This document shows, piece after piece, positions 12,822-61,456 of a stretch of DNA of 64,000 nucleotides. The position numbers and the translations under genes were made by a program. The notes under the pieces are model-generated. The model did not search any database, was not told where the DNA came from, and saw nothing but the letters and a program-made list of their open reading frames with translations. How positions within the stretch are numbered: the first letter of the stretch is position 1; each line of letters starts with the position of its first letter. This stretch comes from Chlorobiota bacterium (GTDB lineage: Bacteria > Bacteroidota > Ignavibacteria > OLB7), in the NCBI GenBank assembly GCA_021296135.1, contig JAGWAZ010000018.1, positions 31,808 through 95,807 of the forward strand. Reading direction: 5' to 3'.

Positions 12822-14150
12822 ATGAAAAGGCCTCCTTATAGCGAACGCCCCCTCTACGGGGCGTTCGCTATCGTTCTTCTTTCAACAGTTATGCTGTTGA
12901 GCTGCACAACCAAATCTTCTCTTGAGCGAACCACTCTGCCCACAATACAATCCTGGTTCTCTCTCGATACAATTCTCCCCTTGATAGATAATGCCGAGCT
13001 TGTAGATAGGTATACCGTTGTCGAGCTGACAGATTCTCTATGTTTTCTCTACTACTCTGGGTTGCGGATTAGTGATTCGGTCATGGGGGTTCTGCGAATT
13101 GTTCTCGATCAACCAGATACTCGGGACACTCTCTGGTTTGAAATTCCAGGCAACATCAGAGATACGTATTTTTTTGTGAAAGACATTACCGTAGATGCCT
13201 CGGCTATGGGTATCCTGGTGTCTGATCATCTCCTTGTATACGATCTCCAGAGCCTCGGTCAGGAGAACGTGTCCGGCTCTTCGGTCATCCCTGTATGGCG
13301 AAGCGTTCCGTTAGATGATTTCTACTACCAGATACAGGCTTCCGGAGATGCTTTTGTCATGCATGAGTGCGCAGTGAGCAGTACTCTAAGAATTGGTGAC
13401 TATACTGGGATGCGATTATACAGGCCCAAAGAGGACACATTATTCGACCATATCGTATTGCCAAACCCTGAAGGGGTTGAGTATACCCTCTTTAGGCCAC
13501 GAAGCGTTATTGCTGTGTGGGATCAGATGGTTGTGGTTTCAGATATCACGCAGTATAGGGTCAAGCTGTACGATCTCTCCGGAGCAGAAAGGGGAGTTAT
13601 TCAGCGAGAGGTTCCTGGTTGGATTGCCGTTGATATAGAGAAACGTGGCACGATTGATCCTGAGGAGCTCTCTCCGCTTAGCCCTAAGAACAGAATGTCT
13701 ATACGCCAGTATATCGATACCCTACGCCCTACAGCATACTCTACAAGCAACATTCGGCGCGTAGACTTCCTGAACGATTCTACGTTGCTGGTAACATATT
13801 TCAATGGGAAGACGGCAGAGAAAGGGCTACTAAAAGGCAGAGCACTAATAGAGTATGATATCTGGAGGAGACGGAACAATAGGTGGGAGTTGCTTGCTGG
13901 CGATATCCCCGATTTTTCGTCCGATCTGGATAGTAATCTTAGTATCGAACGCATGCTCCCGCTCAGATATGGATTCAAAAGGGGTGGTCTCCCCAATGTC
14001 CTCTATAGGATACAGGAGTACGTGCCTCTTCAGACATTCGATATAAAATACTCGGAATTACCCTCTATAATGGAACAGTACTTGATAGAACATGGAAAGT
14101 TATATCACTCTCTATTTCTCTATTCGTTCAAAGAACCATCGATGCCATAA
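12822..14150 (+). CDS. lipoprotein, possible NHL-like beta-propeller (442 aa)
   Basis: Lipoprotein signal (LLSC); repeated segments resembling NHL blades (GILVSDHLLVYDLQS, MVVVSDITQYRVKLYDLSG). Confidence 0.45.
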   Translation: MKRPPYSERPLYGAFAIVLLSTVMLLSCTTKSSLERTTLPTIQSWFSLDTILPLIDNAELVDRYTVVELTDSLCFLYYSGLRISDSVMGVLRIVLDQPDTRDTLWFEIPGNIRDTYFFVKDITVDASAMGILVSDHLLVYDLQSLGQENVSGSSVIPVWRSVPLDDFYYQIQASGDAFVMHECAVSSTLRIGDYTGMRLYRPKEDTLFDHIVLPNPEGVEYTLFRPRSVIAVWDQMVVVSDITQYRVKLYDLSGAERGVIQREVPGWIAVDIEKRGTIDPEELSPLSPKNRMSIRQYIDTLRPTAYSTSNIRRVDFLNDSTLLVTYFNGKTAEKGLLKGRALIEYDIWRRRNNRWELLAGDIPDFSSDLDSNLSIERMLPLRYGFKRGGLPNVLYRIQEYVPLQTFDIKYSELPSIMEQYLIEHGKLYHSLFLYSFKEPSMP

Positions 14151-20874: not shown

Positions 20875-23451
20875 TTACTTCGGCATGTACTCTTGGGTAA
20901 TATCTTCCTGTCGTCGAACTGAGAAGAAGCGGAAAATCTCCATATCGAGCGGTTCATCCGGAACAACCTTGATGCGAACAAAATATTTGAGCATCAGTTT
21001 TGTCAGTCGGCTCATGGTATCTCCTTCAGTCAAAAATTCGATGATGTGTGGGTTAGCGGTCAGAGTCAGGCGAAACTCTCGTGTTTCGGATCGAAATTTG
21101 GCCAGCCAGCCTTCGATACGGCGAAGGATTGTGCTCTTTGACTGAACGATGCCTTTGCCATTACATGTTGGACATGGCTCGGACATCGTCTGTACGAGTT
21201 GCTGGCGTACCCGCTGACGAGTCATCTGAATGATACCGAACTGTGTCATCGGGAGGGCTACAGACTTTGCACGATCACGACTCAGTTCCTTCTTTAACTC
21301 GTCATAGACTTTCTTCCGGTTTTTTTCATCGTAGAGATCGATGAAGTCAATGACAATCAAACCACCGATGTCGCGCAATCGTATCTGTCTGGCAATCTCC
21401 CGGGCCGACTCGAGGTTGATCTTCAAAGCGTTCAGTTCCTGTTCTTTCTCTTTTGCATAGCGACCGGAGTTGACGTCAATAACCATCATCGCCTCGGTCT
21501 GCTCAAGAATGATGTAACCACCGGTAGAGAGCCAGACTTTGGAGGCAAACATCTTGTCAAGCTCTTTTTCGATACCAAAGGCCTGAAAGATTGGTGCGCG
21601 TTCTCCATAGTGTTCAATCTTGTCGATGAGGGGGGGGGCTGCCCAGGTAACGTAATCGCGAATCTCCTGATAGAGCCCTTTATTGTCGATGACGACACGT
21701 GAGATATCCGGGGTAAACAGATCACGCATGACTGTGTTTGTGACCGATTGATCTTTGTACAGGAGCATCGGTGCCTTTGCATTTTTCAAACGTTCGTCAA
21801 CAGCTTTCCATCGGTCAAGAAGCATCTGGAGTTCCTGCTCGAGCATTTCGGAATCCTTATCCTGCGCAACTGTTCTGATGATGCAACCGAATCCTTCCGG
21901 CAACATCTTTCGTGCAATGCCTCGCAAGCGTCTGCGTTCCTTTGAGTCCTGCACTTTTCTCGATATACCAACTCCCGGATCATGCGGCATCAGCACAAGA
22001 AAACGACCTGGAAGAGCAATTTTGGTTGAAATCTTTACTCCCTTTGTTGCGTAGGATTCACGGGTCACCTGAGTCAAAATTTCTTGTCCCTTTTCCAGCG
22101 ATATGGTGATCTCGCCGAAGCGTTTTGTCTGAAAGGTTGGAAGCTGAGCATCCATTCTGCGCGAACGCTTAGGTTTGTCGTTCGATGTATCCCGGGTTTT
22201 TTTTGTTGAACTGTTCCTTCGGCTACTACGTCGACGTGTGGAAGTGCTGCGGGAAGATGTTGAAGATGCTTTTTTATTCGATTGCTGTTCAGTCCCTCCT
22301 TCTATTGCAGTAGTGGCGTTTGATCCGTGGCCACTACTGTCATCGCTATTCTTCCTCTTCGCCTCATTTTGACTCTCACTCCTCTTCAATTTTTGTCTGC
22401 TACTCCGGGTCTTTGGAGCGGGTCTTTCTGATTTTACATCCTTTGTTTCCTTGTCCTCTTTCTCTTCTTTCGGTTGCCTGGAAGATTTTGAGGTCCCCCC
22501 CGATCGTGAACGTCGGGACTTCGATTCTTCCTGTTTATTCTTGGTAGTAACGCCGATTGTCTCGGTCTCTTGAGAGGATTGCTCTCCAGACTTCCTGCGA
22601 GAGCTTCGGAGAGATCGCTGTGAACGTTCCCTTGAACTCTCTCTTCTCTTGCTTTGATCCCCTTCTTCCTTCTTCAGCAAGCCCTTTGTTGACTTCTCTT
22701 TTGGGGAAATGGTTTTCGACACAGCTTCACTCTCGCGTTGGCGATTTCGGGAACCACCTCTTTGCTGACTTGAGCCGGACTTCTCTTCTGTTTTCGGTCT
22801 CTGAGGCTTGTCCGGGGTCTTATTCACCGTTGCTTCCTCAGTCTCTTTCCGTGCTGCCTCTTTTGGGATGTTCCGCTTAGGTCTTGGGCGCCGAGAACTG
22901 CTCTTCTTGGCTGGACTATCGTCGGTGGTTTTCTTCTCATCTTTCCTGGGATCGGACTTCGCTCTCTTCGATTGCTCCTCGTCTGCGCCCTGCCTATCTT
23001 CTCTCCCTTCCTTGGTTTTCTCTTTGGAGGAGGATCCCTTTAAGGCTTTCTTTTGAGCTGACGGTTTCTTTTCCGCCTTTCTCTCCTCTTCCTGTTTCTT
23101 TCTCTGCGACTTGCTCTTTGTGTCGCTTTTTTTTGTCTTTCTTTGCTGAACTACTTCATCCTCGTTCTCTTCATCCTCGTTCTCTTCATCCTCGTCGGTC
23201 AAGAGCTCTGAGAAATCTTCGCCTGCCTTTGCGGCATCGGAAAAGTGAAGGAAGGCATGTTGCTCAAGACCGATGTCAACGAAAGCAGCATTCATCCCCT
23301 GCACAACCCGTTCCACACGACCAAGGTATATGGAGCCTATATGTCGTTCTTTGTCGGGCAGTTCAAGGAAAAGCTCTGCCAGGCGTTCATCTTCGGTAAG
23401 AGCCACGCGAATCTCCGTGGAGGTCGCGTTGATGATAATCTCCTTTTTCAT
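20875..23451 (-). CDS. ribonuclease E/G family protein with ~340-aa low-complexity insertion in S1 domain
   Basis: N-terminal S1 (IYLGRVERVVQGMNAAFVDIG), DNase I-like/catalytic (ALPGRFLVLMPH), Zn-link region CPTCNGKG; long K/S/R/E-rich segment between. Confidence 0.8.
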   Translation of the reverse strand: MKKEIIINATSTEIRVALTEDERLAELFLELPDKERHIGSIYLGRVERVVQGMNAAFVDIGLEQHAFLHFSDAAKAGEDFSELLTDEDEENEDEENEDEVVQQRKTKKSDTKSKSQRKKQEEERKAEKKPSAQKKALKGSSSKEKTKEGREDRQGADEEQSKRAKSDPRKDEKKTTDDSPAKKSSSRRPRPKRNIPKEAARKETEEATVNKTPDKPQRPKTEEKSGSSQQRGGSRNRQRESEAVSKTISPKEKSTKGLLKKEEGDQSKRRESSRERSQRSLRSSRRKSGEQSSQETETIGVTTKNKQEESKSRRSRSGGTSKSSRQPKEEKEDKETKDVKSERPAPKTRSSRQKLKRSESQNEAKRKNSDDSSGHGSNATTAIEGGTEQQSNKKASSTSSRSTSTRRRSSRRNSSTKKTRDTSNDKPKRSRRMDAQLPTFQTKRFGEITISLEKGQEILTQVTRESYATKGVKISTKIALPGRFLVLMPHDPGVGISRKVQDSKERRRLRGIARKMLPEGFGCIIRTVAQDKDSEMLEQELQMLLDRWKAVDERLKNAKAPMLLYKDQSVTNTVMRDLFTPDISRVVIDNKGLYQEIRDYVTWAAPPLIDKIEHYGERAPIFQAFGIEKELDKMFASKVWLSTGGYIILEQTEAMMVIDVNSGRYAKEKEQELNALKINLESAREIARQIRLRDIGGLIVIDFIDLYDEKNRKKVYDELKKELSRDRAKSVALPMTQFGIIQMTRQRVRQQLVQTMSEPCPTCNGKGIVQSKSTILRRIEGWLAKFRSETREFRLTLTANPHIIEFLTEGDTMSRLTKLMLKYFVRIKVVPDEPLDMEIFRFFSVRRQEDITQEYMPK
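23157..23198. repeat. 15-bp tandem repeat (catcctcgttctctt x ~2.7) encoding EDEENEDEENEDE within RNase E/G insertion
   Basis: Read directly. Confidence 0.6.
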
Positions 23452-23790
23452 GTGCTACAAAATTGTATGAACTAACTCCAGCAGGAGGGGGAGAAATGGA
23501 GAGCTGTAAAAAGAAGCTATCGGCGGGCGGGAGAAATCGAATCCGACTGAGAGATTTCGACCAATGGATACAACTTTTCGGAGAAACGGGTGCTTTGGTA
23601 CTACTTATGACATCCGAGCGCAACCGTTTACGTTTATAATCCGCCTTGTCGCCCTGCGCCGTAAGGCGCCTTTTCCCTTCTACTCTCTCCCTGTTCATCC
23701 CGGCAAGCATTGTACGCTTTCCCCTGACGGAGATTGATTATAGAATAAAAAAGAGGTCAAGCGATACCACGTCGCTCCAAACCGTTACCG

Positions 23791-23821
<31 letters not shown>

Positions 23822-23996
23822 GAGCAAGGTTTGGTCGCGCGGAACTTGACCTCTAAAACCTTCTGAGTGTATAAATTCTTCAAAATGATGCGCATACTGA
23901 GCGCGAGTGAGAACAAATATAGCAAAGTAGAGGCAAGAAGAGTACCGGGGAACTGCTCCGGTTACAGAAGATCACGCCGGAAGGGCGAAATTTAGC

Positions 23997-32331: not shown

Positions 32332-34509
32332 TCACCATTTCCAATCTGCCTGGAGAGTCCATCTTCCGCTTAGGTTTCCCCGAATTTCCTGCAAACTTCC
32401 TTCAGAGATGATCTCCCGGTCGGCATACCATGTTTCCGCATACCGGGCGGAAATAGAAAAAGATTCTTCGGGAGACCATTCGGCCATCAGATAAAACCGA
32501 CGTCCTTCCCCTGAGAGTGCAATGTTCGTTAATCTTCCTGGAACATCCTGTTCAAATTCGTACAGGCGAACATCACTCCTTTCGGCATTAAACAATATAA
32601 GCCGAGAACCGAATCTTACGGTTGATAGCGGTTTCCATTGGATGTCAAGAAAGCTCAAGGTGCCATCGGCATCCTCTATACTGTTTGAATATCTTGCAAC
32701 CTTCTGCTCAAGACGTGCGCGGATTTCTATTGGACTATCATGGGGTTTCCAAATAGCTGTGATACGGCCGTTGGCAATTATACGATCTACCAGTTGCTCT
32801 ATGCCACGTCCAAGCTCATCTTCTGTTTTGATAACATCATCACGTTTCTCCGTTTTTAATCGTGCCTGAAGTTGCAATGCGGGTGTTATCCTATACTCAA
32901 ACAAACCCATGGCATCGATTCCCGAAACCGGAAGGGGTACTGTTGAGGTAGCTTCCGGTAGGCGATAGATATCCGTATAGAACGAGAGGAATGCTCTCGG
33001 GAACAACCGAGTGCGCACACCAAGATAAAGACCGAATTCATTCCGGGGATTTGCCGGAGATTCGCCGAACCCAACGCCATAGGGGGAGAAGAAAGATGTC
33101 TGGTAATATCGTGTGGAGAGGGTCAGGTCAATTCCTGAAAGCCGGATGGCCGTGCCAACTATTCCGGCAAAGGCCCCATTGCCTGTGAGGGCAAACTCCC
33201 CAAAGGTTCGACCCGCAGCAAATGGAGTTTCAAAGTCAAGGCTGGCAAGATCCCATTGACTACCATGAAAATCATAGGGAAGGGTTCCACCGAGCGGGCT
33301 ATCATACTGGCCGGTAGAGGCGGTCAATCCAATCCGGGACTCACTGATATGACCTGAGATATTTCCACCGATGATTTGTTCGGTCAGCCTGCCGGCTCTG
33401 CGAATATCTCTTCGTGTTCGAAGCAGTCCGTCATCTCGAATCGAAGTCACAAGGACCTCTGCATCGGCTCCACCCTCAGTCTGAGGAATAATGCTTGCGG
33501 CCAGTGAACGTTGTGAATAAAACCCGGTTACCTCGAGCCAGGAGGGGAGCCAGTCACCACGCCCAAGGATGATTCCGGCACCACGAAAGAAGTATCGCTC
33601 TCCGGTTGATCGGTAACCTTGCAATCCTCCTCGTCCGTTGTATGGATCACGCGTTGGGGAACTTCCTTTTCTACCCCCAAACGTTCTGCCAAAGAGAAGT
33701 CCCTGACCAAAATTTGCGGAGTAATCACCGAGGAAAATGGTTGCCGGTTCCAACTCAGCAACCAGATGTCCGCTCAGGAATCCTCCGAATCCCGAGCGCG
33801 TCGTAAAGGAAGAAAGCTCTTGCGGATCAACCTTCTCGAAATTGTTGTAGGTAAACTCTGCTGTGTCTCTATAGATCAATTCCTCTCCTGGATCTTTTTC
33901 AAAGGTGATACCGGCCGAAATCCGGTCATGGCCTAAAAGAAGACGAGTCAGTATCCCTTGTTCGGTTCCCAAGTATCGGGATCCAAGCGCTATCGTGTCG
34001 AGACCTGTGGAGTCACCGGTCAACAGATCTCGTCGGATAAGAAGACGGTACTCTTTTTCGGAGAAGCCACGCCGTTTCTGGACATCTTGGGTAACCCGGG
34101 AACGGAGTTGTATTGAAAGCGGGGGTTTGCCAGATGCTCCCTGTCGAAGTTCCAGCGTAGTGAAGGCGCTGAGAAGCTGTAGCAGATATGAGTCAATCCA
34201 GTCGAGTCCGGCGAAATCTTCGAAGTTGGATGGAGATTCCGTCTGAAGAAATTCGATGATGCGTGCCGCGGTCTGTAGAGAAACCCCGGGAAGCTCTACG
34301 AGTTTCTCCACTGTTGTATTGTAGAGAGGAAGAGGCTGTGCAAGGTAACCTTCAAGAAGGTCAATGATCGATTGATCGACCTCCTCTTCGCTCCCCATCT
34401 CTTCGAGAAGGCGTTCAAGCTCTGCTTCGGTTGGGAGTTGAGCAAAGAGTATATGAGGAAGAATTATCCAAAGGCAAAACAAAAGGACTTGTGGGAAATA
34501 TGTCTTCAT
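32332..34509 (-). CDS. helix-hairpin-helix (ComEA-like) domain protein with large C-terminal beta-rich region, secreted
   Basis: Signal peptide; HhH motif EKLVELPGVSLQTAARIIEFL; 725 aa. Confidence 0.5.
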   Translation of the reverse strand: MKTYFPQVLLFCLWIILPHILFAQLPTEAELERLLEEMGSEEEVDQSIIDLLEGYLAQPLPLYNTTVEKLVELPGVSLQTAARIIEFLQTESPSNFEDFAGLDWIDSYLLQLLSAFTTLELRQGASGKPPLSIQLRSRVTQDVQKRRGFSEKEYRLLIRRDLLTGDSTGLDTIALGSRYLGTEQGILTRLLLGHDRISAGITFEKDPGEELIYRDTAEFTYNNFEKVDPQELSSFTTRSGFGGFLSGHLVAELEPATIFLGDYSANFGQGLLFGRTFGGRKGSSPTRDPYNGRGGLQGYRSTGERYFFRGAGIILGRGDWLPSWLEVTGFYSQRSLAASIIPQTEGGADAEVLVTSIRDDGLLRTRRDIRRAGRLTEQIIGGNISGHISESRIGLTASTGQYDSPLGGTLPYDFHGSQWDLASLDFETPFAAGRTFGEFALTGNGAFAGIVGTAIRLSGIDLTLSTRYYQTSFFSPYGVGFGESPANPRNEFGLYLGVRTRLFPRAFLSFYTDIYRLPEATSTVPLPVSGIDAMGLFEYRITPALQLQARLKTEKRDDVIKTEDELGRGIEQLVDRIIANGRITAIWKPHDSPIEIRARLEQKVARYSNSIEDADGTLSFLDIQWKPLSTVRFGSRLILFNAERSDVRLYEFEQDVPGRLTNIALSGEGRRFYLMAEWSPEESFSISARYAETWYADREIISEGSLQEIRGNLSGRWTLQADWKW

Positions 34510-42081: not shown

Positions 42082-45000
42082 ATGAAGATTTCCCGTCTCT
42101 ATACGACCACTGGTAAAAATGTCTACGACATGTTTGAGTATTCCCTCCGCAGTTCTATTCTTCGGAATCCTGATGGATCGATTGTCTTCGAGATGCACGA
42201 CATCGAGGTTCCGATCCAGTGGTCACAGATGGCGACTGATATCCTCGCACAAAAGTATTTCCGCAAGACAAGTGTGCCGCAATTTGATGCCGAGGGGAAC
42301 CGGCTCTTTAACGAAAACGGGAAGCCGATTCTCGGTCCAGAGAAGAGCGTAAAGCAGGTTGTCCATCGTCTTGCAGGATGCTGGCGTCACTGGGGGGAAG
42401 AGCATGGTTACTTCGATTCGGAAGCTGATGCACAGGCCTTCTACGATGAGATTGCCTACATGCTCGTGAACCAGATGTCTGCCCCGAATTCACCTCAGTG
42501 GTTCAACACTGGACTCCACTGGGCCTATAACATTGAAGGACCTGCGCAGGGGCACTATTACGTCGATCCCGTAACCGGAAAGCTGACCCGTTCGAAAGAT
42601 GCCTACACACATCCGCACGCGCACGCCTGTTTTATTCAGTCGGTCAGGGATGACCTGGTCAACGAAGGTGGAATCTTTGATCTCGTGACTCGGGAGGCGA
42701 GGATCTTTAAATATGGTTCGGGCACAGGAAGTAATTTCTCTGCGCTCCGAGCCGAAGGAGAGTCTCTTTCAGGCGGCGGTGTCTCGAGTGGGCTCATGAG
42801 CTTCCTGAAAGTGAACGATCGGGCCGCCGGCGCTGTGAAGTCGGGTGGCACAACACGACGTGCTGCAAAGATGGTGATCTTGAACATCGACCACCCTGAC
42901 ATCGAGAAGTTCATCGACTGGAAGATGGTGGAGGAGCAGAAGGTGGCCGCTCTTGTTGCCGGATCACGCATCTGCAAGGCTTTTCTTTCGGGGATTGCCG
43001 AGGTTGCACGGGAACATGGAACCGATTATTCCGATCCATCTTCCGAACTTCACAATCTCGTACAGCGTGCGCTCAGTCGCGGTGTACCGTTCAACTATAT
43101 TATCCGTGTTGTCGCCCTTGTTGAACAGGGAGTGGAGAAGATTGACTTCAGCGAGTACGATTTGAACTATGAGGGAGAAGCATACAATACTGTCAGCGGA
43201 CAGAACTCCAACAACTCGGTCCGTGTCTCTAACGATTTCATGAAAGCTGTTGCCGAGGATGCCGACTGGCATCTGACCTGGCGGATAAACGGAGATGCGG
43301 CGAAGACGGTGAAGGCCAAATATCTCTGGGAGAAGATTAACCACGCTGCCTGGAGTTGCGCTGATCCCGGCCTGCAGTTCGATACCATCATCAACGAGTG
43401 GCACACAAGTCCGAGAGAAGGACAGATTAACGGGAGCAATCCTTGCAGTGAGTACATGTACCTCGACGACACGGCATGTAACCTGGCGAGTCTCAACCTC
43501 GGCCATTTCTATGACGAGGAGATCGAGGTCTTCGATGTTGAGAGCTATAAACATGCTACGCGGCTCTGGACAATTGTTCTCGAAATCTCTGTGCTGATGG
43601 CGCAGTTCCCATCGAAAGAGATTGCGCAGAAGAGCTTCGAAACACGGACGCTCGGACTTGGCTATGCAAATCTTGGTACGATCCTGATGCGTGCTGGTAT
43701 TCCGTACGACTCGGATGAAGGGCGTGCTTGGGCCGGGGCGATCACTGCAATCATGACCGGTGAGGCTTATGCCACAAGCGCAGAGATAGCAGGTGAGCTT
43801 GGAGCCTTCAACAAATACAAGCGGAATGCAAAGGAGATGCTTCGTGTCATGCGGAACCATCGTCGAGCCGCATATAATGCACCGGAAGGGGAGTACGAGG
43901 GATTGACCGTAACACCTGTCGGCATCGATCATTCGATTTGCCCCGTAAATCTTTCCATAGCTGCAAAGGAATGCTGGGATCGCGCAGTCAAGCTCGGCGA
44001 AGAGCATGGGTACCGGAACGCCCAGGTCTCGGTTATCGCTCCGACCGGAACTATAAGTCTGGTTATGGACTGCGATACCACTGGTATCGAGCCGGACTTT
44101 GCTCTGGTTAAATACAAGAAACTTGCCGGAGGTGGATATTTCAAGATCGTCAACCAGTCGGTGCCAAAGGCGTTGACCAACCTCGGTTACACCGATGCTG
44201 AGATCGCTGAGATATCCTCCTACATCAAAGGATATGCTTCGCTGAATGGCTGCCCACGCATCAATCGTGCCTCGCTCAAGACGAAAGGCTTTACCGACGA
44301 GAAGGTTGATGTTGTGGAGTCAGGACTGGAGACGGCGTTTGACATCACTTTTGCCTTCAACCGTTACACGCTCGAGGATGATTTTCTGAGAACTATCGGC
44401 TTCACCGACGAGCAGCTTGAGGATCCGTCGCTCAATATCCTGGCCGAACTCGGGTTCAGCAAGGAGGAAATAGAAGAGGCCAACCTGTATGTCTGTGGTA
44501 CCATGACAATCGAGGGAGCGCCCTATCTGAAGAAAGAGCATCTGCCGGTCTTCGATTGCGCCAACAGGTGTGGAAAGCTCGGTAAGCGGTACATTGAGTA
44601 CATGGGGCACGTAAAGATGATGGCTGCTGCACAGCCCTTTATCTCAGGAGCGATCTCGAAGACGATCAACATGCCACGTGAGGCAACGCTCGAGGATGTC
44701 GAGAAAGTCTACAATGAATCGTGGAAGTTGATGCTGAAGGCGATTGCTCTTTACCGTGACGGCTCGAAGCTTTCACAGCCGCTGAACGTCTCGGCAGATT
44801 CTGAACTTGTTGAGCAGGTGATGCTTGGCGACATCGATGTGGAGGCCTCCCATATGATCGGCAGTGATGAAAACTTCAATGAGGAGATTGGACCGCAGCA
44901 GGTGCAGGAGAAGATTATCGAGAAGGTCTATCACCGGGCAGAACGTCGGCGTCTGCCAAAGCGACGACACGGGTTTGTTCGAGAGGCAACCGTTGGCGGA

Positions 45001-46303: not shown

Positions 46304-48532
46304 ATGCAGAAAATTAAACTTACGGAGAATGAGAAGAGGGATGTGCTTAAATATATTGAGGCTGATAAACCACTGCCGGAAAAATATCGTTGGCTTTTGT
46401 TTGCAGACAAAAAACAAGTAGAGTTGGTGTGGCATGGAAAGACATCGGAAGTGACAAAAACGGTTCTGCCGTTTCAGACGATTGAGGTAGTAGACGAACC
46501 ACGTGCCGAAACCACAAAAGAGACCAAAGAAAATCCACAACAAGCCCTGTTTGATTTCGACGAACGAGGGCGGCAGATTTCCGGTTGGACAAACAAGCTC
46601 ATCTGGGGAGATAATAAACTGATTCTGTCCAGTCTTAAAAGCGGACCGCTCCGCGAGGAGATAGAGAAAGCCGGCGGACTTAAACTTATCTACATTGACC
46701 CGCCCTTTGATGTCGGTGCTAATTTTTCAATGAAAGTTGAAATCGGTGATGACGAGCTAACCAAAAAGCCGAATGTTTTGGAAGAGTTGGTCTATCGTGA
46801 CACCTGGGGTAAAGGCGCGGATAGTTTTATTGCGATGATATATGAGAGATTAAGTTTAATGCGTGACCTATTAGCCGACGATGGCAGTATTTATGTGCAT
46901 TGTGATTGGCGAGTGAATAGCTATATGCGGTTGGTGTTGGATGAGGTGTTTGGAAAGGATGACTATAGAAACGAAATTATTTGGCAAAGAGATGCCGTTG
47001 GTAAGGGAGGAAAGAAAATTTCAAAACAATGGTCAAAAGAAATTGATCACTTGCTGTGGTATTCAAATAGCAATAACTATTATTTTGAACAACAATTTAA
47101 ACAATCTGATGAATTGACACATACTCAACTTAAGGAATTTAGATATAAGGAAGACAACGGGCGTCTATTTAAAATAGTTACACTTGGTAATTACTCGAAA
47201 GATTCAATTGAGAAGATGCGTAAAAAAAATCTTATACATACAACATCAACAGGCAAAGAATATAAAAAATATTATCTGGATGAGTTTCAGTTAGCCATTG
47301 GATCACTATGGCATGATATACCTAATATTTCTCATGGTAAGAATCCAGAAGCCCTAAATTACCCCACCCAAAAACCCGAAAAGCTCCTTGAACGCATAGT
47401 CAAAGCATCTTCCAACGAAGGCGACCTAGTAGCCGATTTTTTCTGTGGTTCGGGTACTACTCTGGCAGTAGCGGAAAAACTGGGTCGCAAATGGATTGGC
47501 TCCGACCTGGGCAAGTTTTCTATTCATACTACTCGCAAACGGATGATTAGTGTGCAGAGAGAAATAAAAGAATCGGGTAAAGGTTTTCGGGCCTTTGAGA
47601 TTTTAAACCTCGGCAAGTATGAACGCCAACACTACATCGGAGTCAATGACAATCTGCGTGAGGAACAAAAGCAAAAACAGATAGCTGAAAAAGAGAATGA
47701 TTTTATAAAGCTCATCATCAAAGCGTATAAAGCCGAGGCGGTAGAAAACTTTAAAACTTTTGTCGCCAAGAAAGCCGGGCGGTTGGTGGCGGTCGGACCG
47801 ATTAATTTACCGACCTCGCGCCTTCTCGTGGAAGCGGTAATAAAAGAATGTATTGAAAAAAAGATTACCAAAGTGGACATTTTATCCTTTGAGTTTGAGA
47901 TGGGCTTGTTTCCCAAGATTCAAGAGGAAGCCAAAGGTAAGGGGATTGATTTGGCACTGAAGTACATACCACGGGAAGTTTTCGACAAGCGAGCGATTGA
48001 AAAAAATCAAATAGAATTCCATGATGTGTCATACATTGAAATTAAGCCCCACATAAAGCCGGCCGGAAAACGCACCCCGGGTACTGTGGCTGTTGAGCTG
48101 AAAGATTTCTCTGTTTTCTATAATCAGGATATTGTAGATAATGTGATTGCGGGTCTTAAAAAAGGCGCTCATAAGGTATTGGTTGAGGCAGGTAATATCA
48201 TTAAGGTAACCAAAGACAAAGACGGGGTTGTGAATCGTGAAGTGCTGACCAAAAAATGGACGGATTGGATTGATTACTGGGCGGTGGACTTTGATTTTGA
48301 GAGCAAGGAAGAGATTGTCCGCATTAAAAATGATGAGGGTGAAATTGAAAAAGTGTGGACTGGCGATTATATTTTTGAGAATGAGTGGCAGAGTTTTCGG
48401 ACCAAAAAAGATCGCTCGATCGAGCTTAAGAGTGTGAGCCGTGAATGTGGTGCCGGACGGCGCAAGATAGCCGTTAAGGTGGTTGATATTTTCGGCAATG
48501 ATACTATGAAAGTAATTGAGGTTAAAATATAA
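46304..48532 (+). CDS. mod: Type III restriction-modification system methyltransferase (Mod; beta-class N6A/N4C MTase)
   Basis: Motif IV YIDPPFDVGANF precedes motif I FFCGSGTTLAVAEKLGRKWIGSD (beta order); 5-nt gap to res. Confidence 0.85.
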   Translation: MQKIKLTENEKRDVLKYIEADKPLPEKYRWLLFADKKQVELVWHGKTSEVTKTVLPFQTIEVVDEPRAETTKETKENPQQALFDFDERGRQISGWTNKLIWGDNKLILSSLKSGPLREEIEKAGGLKLIYIDPPFDVGANFSMKVEIGDDELTKKPNVLEELVYRDTWGKGADSFIAMIYERLSLMRDLLADDGSIYVHCDWRVNSYMRLVLDEVFGKDDYRNEIIWQRDAVGKGGKKISKQWSKEIDHLLWYSNSNNYYFEQQFKQSDELTHTQLKEFRYKEDNGRLFKIVTLGNYSKDSIEKMRKKNLIHTTSTGKEYKKYYLDEFQLAIGSLWHDIPNISHGKNPEALNYPTQKPEKLLERIVKASSNEGDLVADFFCGSGTTLAVAEKLGRKWIGSDLGKFSIHTTRKRMISVQREIKESGKGFRAFEILNLGKYERQHYIGVNDNLREEQKQKQIAEKENDFIKLIIKAYKAEAVENFKTFVAKKAGRLVAVGPINLPTSRLLVEAVIKECIEKKITKVDILSFEFEMGLFPKIQEEAKGKGIDLALKYIPREVFDKRAIEKNQIEFHDVSYIEIKPHIKPAGKRTPGTVAVELKDFSVFYNQDIVDNVIAGLKKGAHKVLVEAGNIIKVTKDKDGVVNREVLTKKWTDWIDYWAVDFDFESKEEIVRIKNDEGEIEKVWTGDYIFENEWQSFRTKKDRSIELKSVSRECGAGRRKIAVKVVDIFGNDTMKVIEVKI

Positions 48533-48537
48533 ATTTT

Positions 48538-51225
48538 ATGGCATTGCATAAAGACTTACCAAAATCACCGCACACTATACTTGACCCTAAGATCAGGTGG
48601 TTTCCGGCCGATGAGGTATTGCGTGATAAGGGTTATGAAAAATTATTGCCACCATTGGTTCATAAACTGCGACAGGAAGTGGCTGATTGGCGAGCCAAAA
48701 ATTATGCGGGAGTGAGTGACACTGGCCGAGCTCTTTTGGAGTGGTGGTTTAATACACCGCACCCGATAGAGACCGCCGACGGCATGGCGAATTTTCAATA
48801 CTACTTTGCTCAACGAGAGGCGGTGGAGACAATTATTTATTGTTATGAAGTAGCGGATGTTAAGGATAAATACGATTTGATTCGTTACGATAGCTCCGAG
48901 GCTGTCTCGGCCAGTATGTTCCCCGAGAATTGGCTTCGGTTGGTTATAAAAATGGCGACCGGCAGTGGAAAAACAAAAGTAATGAGTTTACTCATCGCCT
49001 GGAGCTATTTTCACAAACTGTATGAGGAGACATCGGGCTTGTCGCGCAATTTCTTGCTCATCACTCCCAACATTATCGTGCTCGATCGTATCAAAAGTGA
49101 TTTTGCCGGATTAAAAATATTCTGGGAAGACCCGATTTTGCCGGATAATGGTTTTGCCGGACAAAATTGGCAGGACGATTTTCAAATGACCATACATATG
49201 CAGGACAATGTCGGTACTGTCTCAAAAACCGGCAATATCTTTTTAACCAACATCCACCGCGTGTATAGCAGTAAAGATGTGGTGCCGAGTGCGGACGATG
49301 ATGACACTATGGATTACTTTCTCGGTGAGCGACCGGTTGCCAACACTAGTGATTCAAAAGTTAACCTCGGTGAGATTGTGCGGGATATTGACGAGCTAAT
49401 GGTACTAAATGACGAAGCCCACCATATCCATGACGAACGACTGGCTTGGTTTAAGTCCATTGAAGACATTAGCAATCGTATGAAAATGAAAGATGAATTT
49501 CTATCTTTGCAAATTGATGTTACCGCCACCCCCAAACATAACAACGGCTCAATCTTTGTCCAGACAGTTTCCGATTATCCATTGGTGGAAGCAATTTATC
49601 AGGATGTGGTAAAGCGCCCGGTGCTACCCGATGCTGCCAGTCGCGCCAAATTGCAAGAATACAAAAGTGCCAAATTCACCGAAAAATACAAAGATTATAT
49701 TCATCTTGGATATTTGGAGTGGCAGAAGGCCTATAAAGTACATGAGAAGATGGGCAAGAAAGCAATCTTCTTCATTATGACTGACGACACCAGGAATTGC
49801 GATGAAGTGGCGGAATACTTGATTAACAATCCGGCCTATCCGGAATTTCAATCAGAAAAAGATGTACTGGTTATTCACACAAAAAAGAATGGTGAAATAT
49901 CAGAGAGTGTGACCGGCAAAAAAGAAGAGGAGTTAAAAAAGTTACGCCAAGCCGCTAATGAGATTGATAACTGGGACAGTCCGCATAAAGCCATTATTTC
50001 CGTCTTAATGCTTAAAGAAGGGTGGGATACAAAGAATGTTACTACTATTGTCGGTCTGCGGGCTTATTCAGCCAAGAGTAATATTTTACCCGAGCAAACC
50101 CTCGGCCGGGGTTTGCGCCGAATGTACCGCGATAAAGATGTGACCGAGTATGTCAGTGTGGTCGGTACGGACGCTTTTATGGATTTTGTGGAATCGATCA
50201 GGAGCGAAGGGGTCGAACTCGAGACCACTAAAATGGGTACCGGGACGGAACCAAAAACACCGCTGGTAATTGAGGTAGATAAAGAAAACCCTAAAAAAGA
50301 TATTGAAAAACTGGATATTGAGATTCCTATTTTGTCACCGCGTATTTATAGAGAGTATAAAAATCTTTCTGATTTGGACATCAGCGATTTTACCCATAAC
50401 AAAATTGCTGTCAAAGAGTTTAGCGAAAAGGAGAAAAAGCAAATTGTTTTTCGTGATATAACTTCCGGCGATATTACACACACAACCGAATTCGACAATA
50501 ATTTTGTACCTAACTATCAAAGTGTGATCGGCTACTTCACGCAAATTATCAGAAAAGAGCTTAGACTGGTGGGCGGATACGATGTCTTGTATGAAAAAGT
50601 GAAATACTTTGTTATCGACCATCTTTTTGAGCAAGAAGTTGACTTAAACGATCTTAATATCCTGCGTAACTTGTCAGAAATGGAAGCGTCAAAGACCATT
50701 GTGGAAACTTTCAAGAAAGAGATTAATGAATTGACTGTCTTGGATAAAGGTGAAGCGGAAATCCGTAACTATATAAAAGTCAGCCAAGCAAGACCGTTTG
50801 TAATTAAGGACCAGGGATTTGTGGTGCCCCAAAAGAGCGTCTTCAATAAAATCGTCGGTGATAGTCATTTTGAGTTGCAATTCGCCGGCTTTTTAGAAGG
50901 TTGTGATGACATCATTTCGTATGCCAAAGACTATTTTGCGGTAAATTTCAAAATTGACTACAAAGACGCGGACGGAAATATTAGAGATTATTATCCGGAT
51001 TTCTTGGTTAAGGTATCAAATAAAGAGATGTACATCGTAGAGACCAAGGGGTTTGAAGATTTGGACGCTGTGGAAAAAAGAGAGCGATTGTATCAGTGGT
51101 GTGAGGATATCAATGCGGTGCAGAAAAAAGTGAAATTCACCGCCCTATATATCAAGCAAGAGGACTTTGAAAAATACACCCCCGAGAATTTTGGTGAGTT
51201 GGTGAGTAGTTTTGGTGATAAGTAA
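48538..51225 (+). CDS. res: Type III restriction endonuclease Res subunit (SF2 helicase + PD-(D/E)xK)
   Basis: Walker A MATGSGKT, DEAH VLNDEAHH, helicase motif VI QTLGRGLR, C-terminal nuclease YYPDF...VETKG. Confidence 0.85.
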   Translation: MALHKDLPKSPHTILDPKIRWFPADEVLRDKGYEKLLPPLVHKLRQEVADWRAKNYAGVSDTGRALLEWWFNTPHPIETADGMANFQYYFAQREAVETIIYCYEVADVKDKYDLIRYDSSEAVSASMFPENWLRLVIKMATGSGKTKVMSLLIAWSYFHKLYEETSGLSRNFLLITPNIIVLDRIKSDFAGLKIFWEDPILPDNGFAGQNWQDDFQMTIHMQDNVGTVSKTGNIFLTNIHRVYSSKDVVPSADDDDTMDYFLGERPVANTSDSKVNLGEIVRDIDELMVLNDEAHHIHDERLAWFKSIEDISNRMKMKDEFLSLQIDVTATPKHNNGSIFVQTVSDYPLVEAIYQDVVKRPVLPDAASRAKLQEYKSAKFTEKYKDYIHLGYLEWQKAYKVHEKMGKKAIFFIMTDDTRNCDEVAEYLINNPAYPEFQSEKDVLVIHTKKNGEISESVTGKKEEELKKLRQAANEIDNWDSPHKAIISVLMLKEGWDTKNVTTIVGLRAYSAKSNILPEQTLGRGLRRMYRDKDVTEYVSVVGTDAFMDFVESIRSEGVELETTKMGTGTEPKTPLVIEVDKENPKKDIEKLDIEIPILSPRIYREYKNLSDLDISDFTHNKIAVKEFSEKEKKQIVFRDITSGDITHTTEFDNNFVPNYQSVIGYFTQIIRKELRLVGGYDVLYEKVKYFVIDHLFEQEVDLNDLNILRNLSEMEASKTIVETFKKEINELTVLDKGEAEIRNYIKVSQARPFVIKDQGFVVPQKSVFNKIVGDSHFELQFAGFLEGCDDIISYAKDYFAVNFKIDYKDADGNIRDYYPDFLVKVSNKEMYIVETKGFEDLDAVEKRERLYQWCEDINAVQKKVKFTALYIKQEDFEKYTPENFGELVSSFGDK

Positions 51226-59860: not shown

Positions 59861-61456
<1,596 letters not shown>

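Follow-up and report, generated by a model that had tools for sequence, protein, structure and literature searches.

A ribonuclease gene with a long insert in its S1 domain

The host is an uncultured, Kapaibacteria-like member of the Bacteroidota. Within the window (the whole 64,000-nucleotide stretch of DNA that was analysed), the minus strand encodes an 858-residue protein of the Rne/Rng family of ribonucleases. The protein (P0121 in our set of homologs) is identical to NCBI entry MCE2503266.1, which is from a metagenome-assembled genome (MAG) labelled Chlorobi bacterium. The features of the gene are:

20875..23451, minus strand: Rne/Rng-family ribonuclease gene; one open reading frame, 858 amino acids plus stop
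23236..23451, minus strand: N-terminal RNase H-like subdomain and S1 strands beta1-beta3; residues 1-72, aligning with E. coli residues 2-75
23197..23235, minus strand: loop-opening helical segment AAKAGEDFSELLT; residues 73-85
23155..23196, minus strand: acidic head DEDEENEDEENEDE; residues 86-99, coded by a perfect 15-bp tandem repeat
22144..23196, minus strand: K/S/R/E-rich polyampholyte insert, predicted to be disordered; residues 86-436, about 350 amino acids
22873..22908, minus strand: Arg/Pro-rich basic island KKSSSRRPRPKR; residues 182-193
22588..22650, minus strand: RS-like tract KRRESSRERSQRSLRSSRRKS; residues 268-288, read from the sequence
22156..22251, minus strand: basic tail RSTSTRRRSSRRNSSTKKTRDTSNDKPKRSRR; residues 401-432
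22102..22143, minus strand: re-entry segment LPTFQTKRFGEITI; residues 437-450, a predicted small beta-hairpin just before S1 strand beta4
20878..22101, minus strand: S1 strands beta4-beta5 through to the small domain; residues 451-858, from alignment to 2BX2/2VRT

The initial annotation called this protein an RNase E/G homolog, and two family models agree. PF10150 (RNase_E_G) matches residues 480-748 (E = 3e-101; 338.8 bits, with a cutoff of 25.5), and TIGR00757 matches with 470.2 bits (cutoff 325.95). Among the more specific models in NCBIfam, the protein does not reach the cutoff for the RNase G equivalog (NF008689, 352 versus 594) or for the RNase E equivalogs (NF008074, 264 versus 908; NF052586, 273 versus 900; NF052588, 255 versus 1400). 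We therefore assign it to the Rne/Rng family and go no further.

The N-terminal segment (residues 1-72) includes the RNA-contact residues F57 and F67. Beyond the insert, K470 corresponds to K112 of E. coli RNase E (an RNA contact in the beta4-beta5 part of S1); R526 and T527 correspond to R169 and T170 of the 5' sensor; D659 and D702 correspond to D303 and D346, which bind magnesium in the DNase I-like catalytic domain; and C760 and C763 correspond to C404 and C407 of the zinc link. All of these residues are invariant across 119 homologs. In the AlphaFold2 (AF2) model, strands at 41-50, 55-59, and 66-69 have pLDDT of 84-95, residues 451-858 are mostly at 90 or above, and the best matches from Foldseek are E. 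coli RNase E (E ~ 1e-30). Judging from the sequence and the model, the product is a complete and probably active endoribonuclease of the RNase E/G family. It does not have a C-terminal extension: 408 amino acids follow beta4, which is the same as in short homologs.

We considered an autoregulatory 5' leader like that of E. coli and rejected it, as the 300-nucleotide leader did not fold better than shuffled sequences did (z = -1.95) and there was no match to rne5 from Rfam. An enolase gene lies 36 kb from the ribonuclease gene in the window, which has no bearing on binding.

Position and extent of the insert

Against structures of E. coli RNase E, residues 3-75 align with residues 2-75 and residues 451-856 align with residues 93-501. 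This implies that the 17-residue loop of the E. coli protein (76-92) is replaced by residues 76-450, or 375 amino acids. When residues 87-435 are deleted in silico, what is left gives a single colinear alignment to E. coli 2-210. By alignment, then, the insert separates beta3 from beta4. As the initial annotation had described, it lies inside the S1 domain; after it, the S1 fold continues and the catalytic domains follow. In the structures from E. coli and Caulobacter, the beta3-beta4 loop is solvent-exposed and adjoins the RNA channel.

The insert had originally been placed at 22206-23223 (residues 77-415) and described as about 340 amino acids. The start holds up, but the end was set 20-35 residues too early: the basic Ser/Arg tail continues to around residue 436 (nucleotide 22144). 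The length is better given as about 350 disordered amino acids or as 375 amino acids of extra loop.

The two ends of the loop are its most recognizable parts. The opening segment (73-85) is kept in every long-loop homolog, with a clade consensus of A.DEF.DLL, and AF2 places helices at 70-74 and 78-84 (pLDDT about 61-66). At re-entry, AF2 places strands at 440-442 and 446-448, and DAKLPTFQTKR.GEVTI is kept in every long-loop protein as well as in the short-loop relatives nearest to them.

Between these ends, the insert is 15.9% Lys, 16.1% Ser, 12.7% Glu, and 11.9% Arg. Over the 378-residue loop (73-450), FCR is 0.46, NCPR is +0.095, and 6.6% of residues are hydrophobic. Ser and Thr account for 24% of the loop, which contains 21 RS or SR dipeptides. 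AF2 gives pLDDT under 50 and no secondary structure over about residues 100-435, and the Uversky H value (0.27, with a boundary of 0.45) falls on the disordered side. There are no Pfam domains at E <= 0.1 in the insert, either in this protein or in eight other long homologs. Nor did we find an amphipathic membrane-targeting helix, as AF2 shows no helix between residues 85 and 436. Kappa is 0.24, compared to 0.17 +- 0.02 for shuffled sequences; most of the excess is due to the single acidic head, and the remainder is well mixed. The charge profile, the Uversky value, and AF2 thus agree with the original description of a segment that is first acidic, then basic and Ser-rich, and predicted to be disordered. 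The peptides that were quoted in that description are all present in the translation.

The insert belongs to a single gene

The same gene is present on 13 independent contigs, either identical or with a single substitution (T303I). These contigs are from different samples and assemblers, and they include a 3.4 Mb long-read contig. ERZ18545484 and ERZ15614537 are among the source samples. There are no stops in the 351 codons of the insert, while the other two sense frames have 7 and 22. From base composition, 15 stops would be expected, and the probability of finding none is about 2e-7. The 858-residue frame is uninterrupted and the architecture is clade-wide (see below), which confirms that this is one gene rather than two, as first annotated, and led us to reject a frameshift or a mis-assembly.

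The insert does have an anomalous composition (the AT skew on the plus strand ranges from -0.45 to -0.73), and several spurious antisense reading frames overlap it. Still, we find it barely conceivable that the insert is an artefact of mis-assembly, that a frameshift has fused two genes, or that an intein, intron, IS, or other mobile or foreign element has entered the gene: besides the 13 contigs and the open frame, the homologs of one clade are all expanded at the same site, the two halves of S1 make one fold, Pfam and Rfam find neither a domain nor an intron, and the AF2 model is structureless where a hidden folded domain or an intein would lie.

The loop is expanded throughout a clade

In a tree of the core domains, all of the close homologs with loops of over 300 amino acids (28/28) lie in one clade. 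Their loops are 378-722 amino acids long, and a related genome (L011) has a loop of 976. The shortest loop in the clade is 378 amino acids even though the core domains are as little as 43% identical or so, and none of the 28 members has reverted to a short loop. In Ignavibacteria-type relatives, the same loop already has 55-90 amino acids and is acidic at its head and basic at its tail. So the insert did not arise de novo in a loop of normal size, which is how it had been viewed; instead, a loop that is already enlarged in relatives has been expanded to an extreme.

Conservation within the loop is confined to the entry helix and the acidic run that follows it, and to the basic tail and the LPTFQTKR hairpin. 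The acidic head is common to long and short loops (NCPR of -0.41 and -0.51, respectively). A basic tail is found in all 28 long loops (NCPR of +0.05 to +0.30 over the last 60-20 residues); only its basic character is kept, not its sequence.

The interior is another matter. Gapped local alignments of the interior to 24 members of the clade all gave z < 3 relative to shuffled controls (24/24). An ungapped scan with 12-mers found a single significant match, to the closest relative (P0002): residues 182-193 match KKSGSRRRRPKR with a score of 48, compared to 37.4 +- 2.7 for shuffled sequences (z = 4.0). Similar RRRPRP islands are visible in the alignment for P0003, P0004, and P0007. The RS-like tract (268-288) is not kept in relatives. 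Since these searches yielded just one basic island, and only in the closest relative, we rejected the idea that the loop carries conserved docking motifs. Without position-specific conservation of the interior, there is no sign of the docking microdomains that define the known degradosome scaffolds.

What the long loops do share is their net charge. NCPR ranges from -0.03 to +0.12, and the mean FCR is 0.44. Across the relatives' loops, K/(K+R) varies from 0.12 to 0.93, Ser content varies from 4% to 30%, and the dominant residues switch among K/S, R/D/E, Q/P, and N/K. We asked if the composition of the insert reflects genomic bias, but as stated this was not supported, as K/(K+R) in the insert is hardly correlated with K/(K+R) in the core (r = 0.17).

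Tandem repeats and growth of the loop

Tandem Repeats Finder (TRF) reports a repeat at 23154-23195 with a period of 15, 2.8 copies, and 100% match. It encodes (EDEEN)n. This is the repeat that was initially reported at 23157-23198; the repeat is real and the position is slightly different. The repeat was also suspected of varying in length, and it does: P0122 (locus L007), which is from a near-identical strain, has 853 amino acids and exactly one 15-bp unit fewer, and the DNA that flanks the missing unit is identical. In the insert DNA of relatives, decayed in-frame tandem repeats with periods of 9-60 bp are abundant. They are densest in L011, which carries the 976-residue loop. The one-unit difference between strains and the in-frame repeats in relatives suggest that successive rounds of tandem duplication or slippage, all in frame, probably lengthened the loop.

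Relationship to known insertions and scaffolds

Charged, disordered insertions of 50-150 amino acids in the S1 domain of RNase E have been described from alpha-proteobacteria and plants (Voss et al. 2014, PMC4245959), and an S1 insertion in RNase E from Chlorobium tepidum was also noted (Mudd et al. 2008, PMC2486463). The insert of Caulobacter crescentus (PDB 4OXP) occupies the same position as ours and is exposed to solvent next to the RNA site; a fragment with the S1 domain and the 5' sensor binds RhlB; and deleting the insert from the Arabidopsis enzyme reduces its activity (PMC4245959). The insert that we describe shares the site of this class (the loop before beta4), its high charge and predicted disorder, its variability in sequence and length among relatives, and its acidic residues near the RNA channel. 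It differs in its host, which is a Kapaibacteria-like member of the Bacteroidota, and in its size. 4OXP has about 77 extra residues and our protein has about 358; also, the loop of 378 amino acids (up to 976 in the clade) is 2.5 to 7 times the published 50-150, which is a descriptive range and not a defining criterion. Unlike in the Caulobacter insert, a helix is predicted only in the first 12 residues or so, and Caulobacter RNase E also has a C-terminal scaffold, which our protein lacks.

Nor is a loop of this size unique, as the initial annotation implied: besides the shorter insertions in the literature, there are loops of 300-771 amino acids at the same site in at least four other lineages. 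They include the Acidobacteriota (Silvibacterium sp. WP_415199114.1, 653 amino acids), the Sumerlaeota (Sumerlaeaceae MBX7245812.1, 527), the Rubricoccaceae (HYE96823.1, 402), and a deltaproteobacterial MAG (MBS2023569.1, 310). The proteins are unannotated members of the Rne/Rng family, 31-41% identical overall to ours. Like our insert, their loops are of low complexity and poor in hydrophobic residues; they start with an acidic head and end in a tail rich in Arg and Gly. In contrast to ours, they are rich in E, A, P, and G, and the Acidobacteriota type is net acidic. Among the first 120 matches, loop length had seemed to be bimodal (55-121 or at least 378 amino acids). A wider search gave 21,342 homologs, and in a broader survey of the family this pattern was lost, with a continuous range from 12 to 771 amino acids, so we no longer propose a discrete functional class based on loop length.

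Long loops tend to occur in proteins that lack a long C-terminus. Across 43 representatives with loops of at least 100 amino acids, the lengths of the loop and of the C-terminal extension are anticorrelated (Spearman rho = -0.50, p = 6e-4), as computed without regard to phylogeny from a list ranked by similarity to our insert-containing query. In the same similarity-ranked list, 49 proteins have loops of at least 300 amino acids, and just 3 of these have a C-terminal extension of over 150.

How does the insert compare to the C-terminal scaffold of RNase E from E. coli and other gamma-proteobacteria? Both are long, disordered, rich in Arg and Lys, and fast-diverging, and they are attached to the same catalytic domain. 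The insert, however, is inside the S1 fold instead of at the C-terminus, and our alignments and the AF2 model showed neither conserved short linear motifs nor an amphipathic helix like those that define the scaffold. AR-RBD and AR2 are RNA-binding segments of E. coli RNase E, and the basic tracts of the insert are reminiscent of these.

Al-Husini and colleagues reportedly found in 2018 that the C-terminal IDR of Caulobacter RNase E drives the formation of BR-body condensates. Alternating blocks of opposite charge are a feature of this type of IDR. Both that IDR and our insert are highly charged polyampholytes on an oligomeric enzyme of the RNase E family, which implies multivalency. But our insert is internal, and its kappa (0.24 versus 0.17) indicates charge segregation that is only slightly above random. 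In RNase E from Streptomyces and other actinobacteria, non-catalytic regions are said to lie both before and after the catalytic domain (work from 2003 that is attributed to Lee and Cohen). Those regions flank the domain, whereas here a domain is interrupted; both cases illustrate how varied the placement of disordered material can be relative to the catalytic core.

A possible substitute for the C-terminal scaffold

We propose that the loop grew by in-frame tandem duplication, that it is kept for its bulk properties, and that it replaces the absent C-terminal scaffold. We give this explanation roughly an even chance of being correct. Under this proposal, each subunit of the oligomer would have a long, flexible, Lys/Arg-rich arm that is rooted beside the channel formed by S1 and the 5' sensor. 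The arm would add non-specific, multivalent binding of RNA, and it might also recruit partners or form condensates. What is retained would be length, high charge, and a near-neutral to slightly positive net charge, rather than specific motifs. RNA binding might be tempered by the conserved acidic head, serving either as a counter-ion within the molecule or as an RNA mimic. And the loop would stand in for the non-catalytic region that other family members have at their C-terminus and that is missing here.

Several lines of evidence are consistent with this proposal, besides the intact catalytic core and the open frame of the insert. First, the long loop seems to have been retained, as it is present in all 28 members of the clade, with no reversions and with a minimum of 378 amino acids at about 43% identity of the core. 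Second, the narrow range of NCPR despite divergent compositions, together with the conserved acidic head and basic tail, suggests selection on bulk properties. Third, the lack of a C-terminal extension in this protein and the anticorrelation between loops and C-termini point to a substitution. The repeat variation between strains and in relatives fits the proposed mode of growth, and the Caulobacter insert, the RhlB-binding fragment, and the effect of the Arabidopsis deletion (PMC4245959) provide precedents. Counting against the proposal, the interior has no position-specific conservation even among the closest relatives, no amphipathic helix is predicted, and kappa is only modestly above random. 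The anticorrelation, for its part, carries no phylogenetic correction and comes from matches ranked with a query that itself has the insert. Also, the continuous distribution of loop lengths is what we would expect if length drifts freely.

This brings us to near-neutral, runaway expansion, in which any hydrophilic filler is tolerated in the loop and the insert itself serves no function. The DNA here is rich in purines and prone to repeats; replication slippage would lengthen the loop, and selection would maintain only the open frame and solubility. Such a process would account for an interior that is conserved only in composition, and for a composition that itself varies widely among relatives. 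The copy-number polymorphism between strains, the many decayed repeats, the unbroken range of lengths across the family, and the similar expansions in several phyla would fit as well. But bacterial genomes are deletion-biased, and yet no loop in the clade is under 378 amino acids. Runaway expansion also does not explain why net charge stays in a narrow band across radically different compositions, or why a long loop and a long C-terminal extension tend not to occur together. Furthermore, the Arabidopsis insert is much smaller, and its removal impairs activity (PMC4245959). Overall, we view functionless expansion as possible but on the unlikely side.

A primarily regulatory loop seems distinctly improbable to us. 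The acidic run would mimic RNA in the channel of S1 and the 5' sensor, the basic remainder would compete for the acidic run, and the gate would respond to ionic conditions, RNA load, or phosphorylation of Ser or Thr. The acidic head is indeed kept in both long and short loops, and a quarter or so of the loop (24%) is Ser or Thr, with RS-like tracts. Also, in Caulobacter a helix of the insert reaches into the RNA site, and RNA mimicry has been proposed for the acidic side chains of this helix (PMC4245959). However, the acidic head is older than the expansion, so regulation of this kind leaves the extra 300 or more amino acids unexplained. Ser content is not conserved either (4-30%), and AF2 does not place the loop in contact with the channel with confidence (pLDDT < 50).

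Returning to the scaffold-replacement proposal, it could be extended beyond this clade. The RNase E/G scaffold might have relocated to the interior of the enzyme in the Kapaibacteria-like group and, independently, in certain Acidobacteriota, Sumerlaeota, and Rhodothermota, with a disordered S1 arm of 350-1000 amino acids as the sole non-catalytic region. The arm would capture RNA and assemble degradosomes or condensates by means of sequence-independent bulk properties, and its length would be tuned by repeat slippage. In this general form the idea is speculative, and we hold it only as an unlikely, tentative extension.

Significance

RNase E-family enzymes set the lifetimes of mRNAs in most Gram-negative bacteria and in chloroplasts, and the disordered regions of RNase E organize degradosomes and RNA-decay condensates. 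To our knowledge, almost everything that is known about these regions comes from the C-terminal regions of proteobacterial enzymes. The insert described here is not new in kind: insertions like it are known, though unexplained, and this one is oversized. Whatever the loop does, the enzyme is an ordinary housekeeping ribonuclease, and S1 insertions in general are already in the literature. What this locus and its relatives add is that a loop of an OB fold, right beside the RNA channel, can hold hundreds of disordered residues (nearly 1,000 at the extreme), and that giant S1 loops occur across a number of phyla that have been little studied, usually where the protein has no C-terminal region. 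Should the loop be neutral filler, it would strikingly illustrate the capacity of a folded domain to tolerate disorder. If the loop does the job of the scaffold, then these enzymes would be a natural test of whether position and sequence matter, or whether bulk chemistry is enough.

An intact ribonuclease with an enlarged S1 loop

The disordered insert is encoded within one gene, a single unbroken open reading frame:

20875-23451, minus strand: Rne/Rng-family ribonuclease, 858 amino acids

Residues 480-748 match the RNase E/G catalytic domain (PF10150, E = 3e-101), and there is a second, weaker match to the RNase E/G thioredoxin-like small domain. The protein passes the TIGR00757 model for the Rne/Rng subfamily (470 bits vs. 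a cutoff of 326) and falls below every equivalog cutoff for RNase G and RNase E, so we describe it only as an Rne/Rng-family ribonuclease. When aligned to solved structures, residues 3-75 correspond to residues 2-75 of E. coli RNase E, and residues 451-856 correspond to 93-501. Residues 76-450 therefore replace a 17-residue loop (E. coli 76-92) that lies between strands beta3 and beta4 of the S1 domain. If residues 87-435 are deleted, the sequence is colinear with E. coli 2-210 in a single stretch and exceeds it by only ~10 residues.

Every residue known to matter functionally in E. coli is retained. The catalytic aspartates (D659/D702, equivalent to E. coli D303/D346), the 5' sensor (R526/T527; E. 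coli R169/T170), the S1 contacts (F57, F67, and K470; E. coli F57, F67, and K112), and the Zn-link cysteines (C760 and C763) are invariant across 119 homologs. An AlphaFold2 model from the 119-sequence alignment has pLDDT of 84-97 across most of the core, and Foldseek aligns this model, including both halves of S1, with structures of E. coli RNase E. The protein ends 408 residues past beta4, as short homologs do, so the C-terminal non-catalytic region is absent.

Residues 73-450 are 15.9% K, 16.1% S, 12.7% E, 11.9% R, and only 6.6% hydrophobic. Their charged fraction is 0.46, their net charge per residue is +0.095, and they lie deep within the disordered region of a Uversky plot. In the AlphaFold2 model, residues ~100-435 score below 50 in pLDDT and lack secondary structure; short helices are predicted for residues 70-74 and 78-84, as is a small hairpin (440-448) immediately before beta4. 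Searching Pfam with the insert alone gave no matches at E ≤ 0.1, nor did the inserts of eight other long homologs have any.

Across 351 codons, the true frame contains no stop codons, compared with 7 and 22 in the other two sense frames; 15 would be expected from base composition, and the probability of having none is ~2e-7. The coding strand of the insert is very rich in purines (A 40%, T 11%), which explains its strong AT skew and the spurious antisense ORFs. The insert's coding sequence also contains two A8 runs (T8 on the plus strand, at 23127-23134 and 22197-22204), which are potential slippage sites and are unchanged in all contigs examined.

The protein is identical to MCE2503266.1 from a "Chlorobi bacterium" MAG in NCBI, and a version that differs at one residue (T303I) is encoded by 13 contigs, which come from various samples and assemblers and include a 3.4 Mb long-read contig. 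Artefact explanations are excluded. The initial annotation's main observation, an oversized disordered insertion within S1, is confirmed: the gene securely encodes an intact housekeeping ribonuclease whose beta3-beta4 loop is greatly expanded, disordered, and translated.

The initial annotation had also noticed a tandem repeat and suggested that its length could vary. We find the repeat at 23154-23195 (period 15, 2.8 copies, 100% match), where its product is the acidic run DEDEENEDEENEDE. At locus L007, from a near-identical strain, the gene encodes 853 residues: precisely one 15-bp unit is missing and the flanking DNA is unchanged, so the suggested polymorphism does exist in nature.

Neighboring genes

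Other features in the window include:

23752-23851, minus strand: bacterial small SRP RNA (RF00169, 59.6 bits, E = 1e-10)
23452-23751, minus strand: 300-nt ribonuclease leader, from the SRP RNA to the start codon
42082-45645, plus strand: class II ribonucleotide reductase (1187 amino acids), with a TSCPD domain near the C-terminus
46304-51225, plus strand: DNA methylase (PF01555, 742 amino acids) and adjacent ResIII helicase-nuclease (895 amino acids)
59861-61375, minus strand: enolase, with ~79 residues preceding Enolase_N

The SRP RNA gene is separated from the downstream ribonuclease start codon by 300 nt and sits between the ribonuclease and an LptD-like gene. The leader does not fold better than shuffled sequences (z = -1.95), and an Rfam search of it found no match to the rne 5'UTR. 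A 107-residue ORF that overlaps it (23387-23710, minus strand) is probably spurious. The barrel domain of the ribonucleotide reductase matches in two stretches, which could reflect an insertion; a 347-residue antisense ORF (42964-44007) overlaps this gene. The methylase and helicase-nuclease are likely a Type III restriction-modification system. The extra residues of the enolase arise because the ORF finder probably chose an upstream TTG start, and the presence of enolase is uninformative about association with a degradosome. Two ORFs, at 12822-14150 (plus strand, 442 amino acids) and 32332-34509 (minus strand, 725 amino acids), have no Pfam matches at E ≤ 1e-5.

A clade of long-loop ribonucleases

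Among the best 120 database matches, 28 complete proteins (858-1488 amino acids) and one N-terminally truncated protein are enlarged at the same site in S1. The named carriers are labelled as Candidatus Kapaibacterium or as MAGs of Chlorobi/Chlorobiota or Ignavibacteria. Within these matches, long loops span 378-722 residues, and the window's is the shortest; species-representative genomes contribute further loops of 382-976 residues. Loops are 55-90 residues in Ignavibacteria-type relatives (proteins of 532-567 amino acids) and 38-40 residues in Marinimicrobia-type relatives. When the core domains are placed in a neighbor-joining tree, all 28 long-loop proteins group as a single clade that includes no short-loop protein.

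The edges of the loop are conserved across the clade: it is entered by A.DEF.DLL and an acidic run, and exited by DAKLPTFQTKR.GEVTI. The LPTF.TKRSG motif and the layout of an acidic head and a basic tail are also found in the nearest short-loop relatives; the "insertion" is therefore an extreme enlargement of a variable loop that was already present.

The largest loop that we saw (976 residues) is from a Bacteroidota MAG (L011, JBEHWX010000052.1). A contig labelled as Armatimonadota (L013, JADZEY010000073.1) encodes an Rne/Rng of the Kapaibacteria-like long-loop type that is nearly the same as protein P0025, and this contig may be mis-binned.

Large loops in other lineages

Scanning 1.84 billion representative proteins in full with HMMER gave 21,342 homologs. 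In 141 of the best 150, we measured loop lengths, which range continuously from 12 to 771 residues; this list is enriched for long loops because the ranking query includes the insert. Unnamed representatives account for the longest of these, at 771 residues. Named carriers with loops of at least 300 residues, among the matches listed, are:

Silvibacterium sp. (Acidobacteriota): 653 residues
Sumerlaeaceae MAG: 527 residues
Bacteroidota MAG: 486 residues
Rubricoccaceae MAG: 402 residues
"Deltaproteobacteria" MAG: 310 residues

In these named carriers (P0235, P0239, P0129, P0277, and P0224), the loops are likewise of low complexity, combining an acidic head with a tail that is Arg/Gly-rich. These five proteins are annotated merely as Rne/Rng family ribonucleases.

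Among proteins with loops of at least 100 residues, the lengths of the loop and of the C-terminal extension are anticorrelated (Spearman -0.50, p = 6e-4, n = 43, ignoring kinship). C-terminal extensions of over 150 residues occur in 3 of 49 proteins with loops of at least 300 residues vs. 14 of 22 with loops of 100-300 residues. This pattern, from few independent lineages and with kinship ignored, fits a trade-off in where disordered material is placed. Two exceptions from the clade, P0022 (1488 amino acids) and P0027 (1193 amino acids), combine a giant S1 loop with a low-complexity, Arg/Ala/Gly/Pro-rich C-terminal extension of 300-367 residues.

Potential functions of the loop

Inside the loop, little sequence is conserved. 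When the interior of the window's loop was aligned locally, with gaps, to 24 clade members, scores were no higher than those obtained after shuffling the members' sequences (all z below 3 and most near 0). An ungapped 12-mer scan found one significant island, KKSSSRRPRPKR (residues 182-193), which aligns to KKSGSRRRRPKR in the closest relative (P0002; z = 4.0). Composition also diverges radically, from K/S-rich in the window to R/D/E-rich, Q/P-rich, or N/K-rich in relatives, and across the clade the insert's K/(K+R) spans 0.12-0.93, vs. only 0.26-0.54 for the core. In contrast, bulk properties are kept within limits: the net charge per residue of long loops stays between -0.03 and +0.12, the charged fraction averages 0.44, heads are acidic, with a mean net charge per residue of -0.41, and tails are basic, from +0.05 to +0.30. 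Since the net charge of short loops is acidic (-0.15), the material gained in expansion was mainly basic and mixed-charge.

The insert DNA of relatives contains many decayed tandem repeats, all but two with periods divisible by three (9-60 bp), and their density is highest in the genome with the 976-residue loop. Together with the indel between strains, these repeats point to growth by in-frame tandem duplication.

The reading that we favor, at about even odds, is that the loop has a bulk-property role, as an arm standing in for the absent C-terminal region. Each subunit would have a flexible, slightly basic polyampholyte arm, rooted beside the RNA channel, that would supply non-specific multivalent RNA binding and might also supply interactions with partners or in condensates. 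The conserved acidic head would be an internal counter-ion.

The main rival, which we consider rather unlikely, is that slippage inflated a permissive loop in a near-neutral manner.

Insertions in S1 have been described before, including in Chlorobium tepidum and plant enzymes (Mudd et al. 2008, PMC2486463). According to Voss et al. (PMC4245959), those of RNase E are 50-150 residues long and are consistent only in location, abundance of charged residues, and predicted disorder. Our protein agrees in all three respects and presumably works as these homologs do, and we group it with them, as an unusually large example. In the papers searched, we found none that describes S1 inserts several hundred residues long, or any S1 insert from Kapaibacteria-like bacteria. 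At the same site, ~77 additional residues are present in Caulobacter RNase E (4OXP). A helical part of the Caulobacter insert is exposed to solvent in the tetramer and extends into the RNA-binding site, where RNA mimicry was proposed for its acidic side chains; a fragment comprising S1 and the 5' sensor binds RhlB, and deleting the Arabidopsis insert impairs activity (PMC4245959). A mainly regulatory, RNA-mimic role agrees with the acidic head of our loop, but leaves 300 additional residues unexplained, and we consider it improbable.

The initial annotation had likened the insert to the E. coli scaffold region, and its interpretation is partly supported: the charged, disordered S1 insertion stands, but in the loop we detected neither the conserved microdomains nor the amphipathic helix of an E. 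coli-type scaffold. This lowers the case for a degradosome scaffold; a scaffold that does not depend on motifs would be compatible with these results.

These results do not demonstrate a new mechanism, and public databases already contain similar proteins that have gone unremarked. They extend a little-studied S1 insertion several-fold in size and to new phyla, and they offer a natural length polymorphism.
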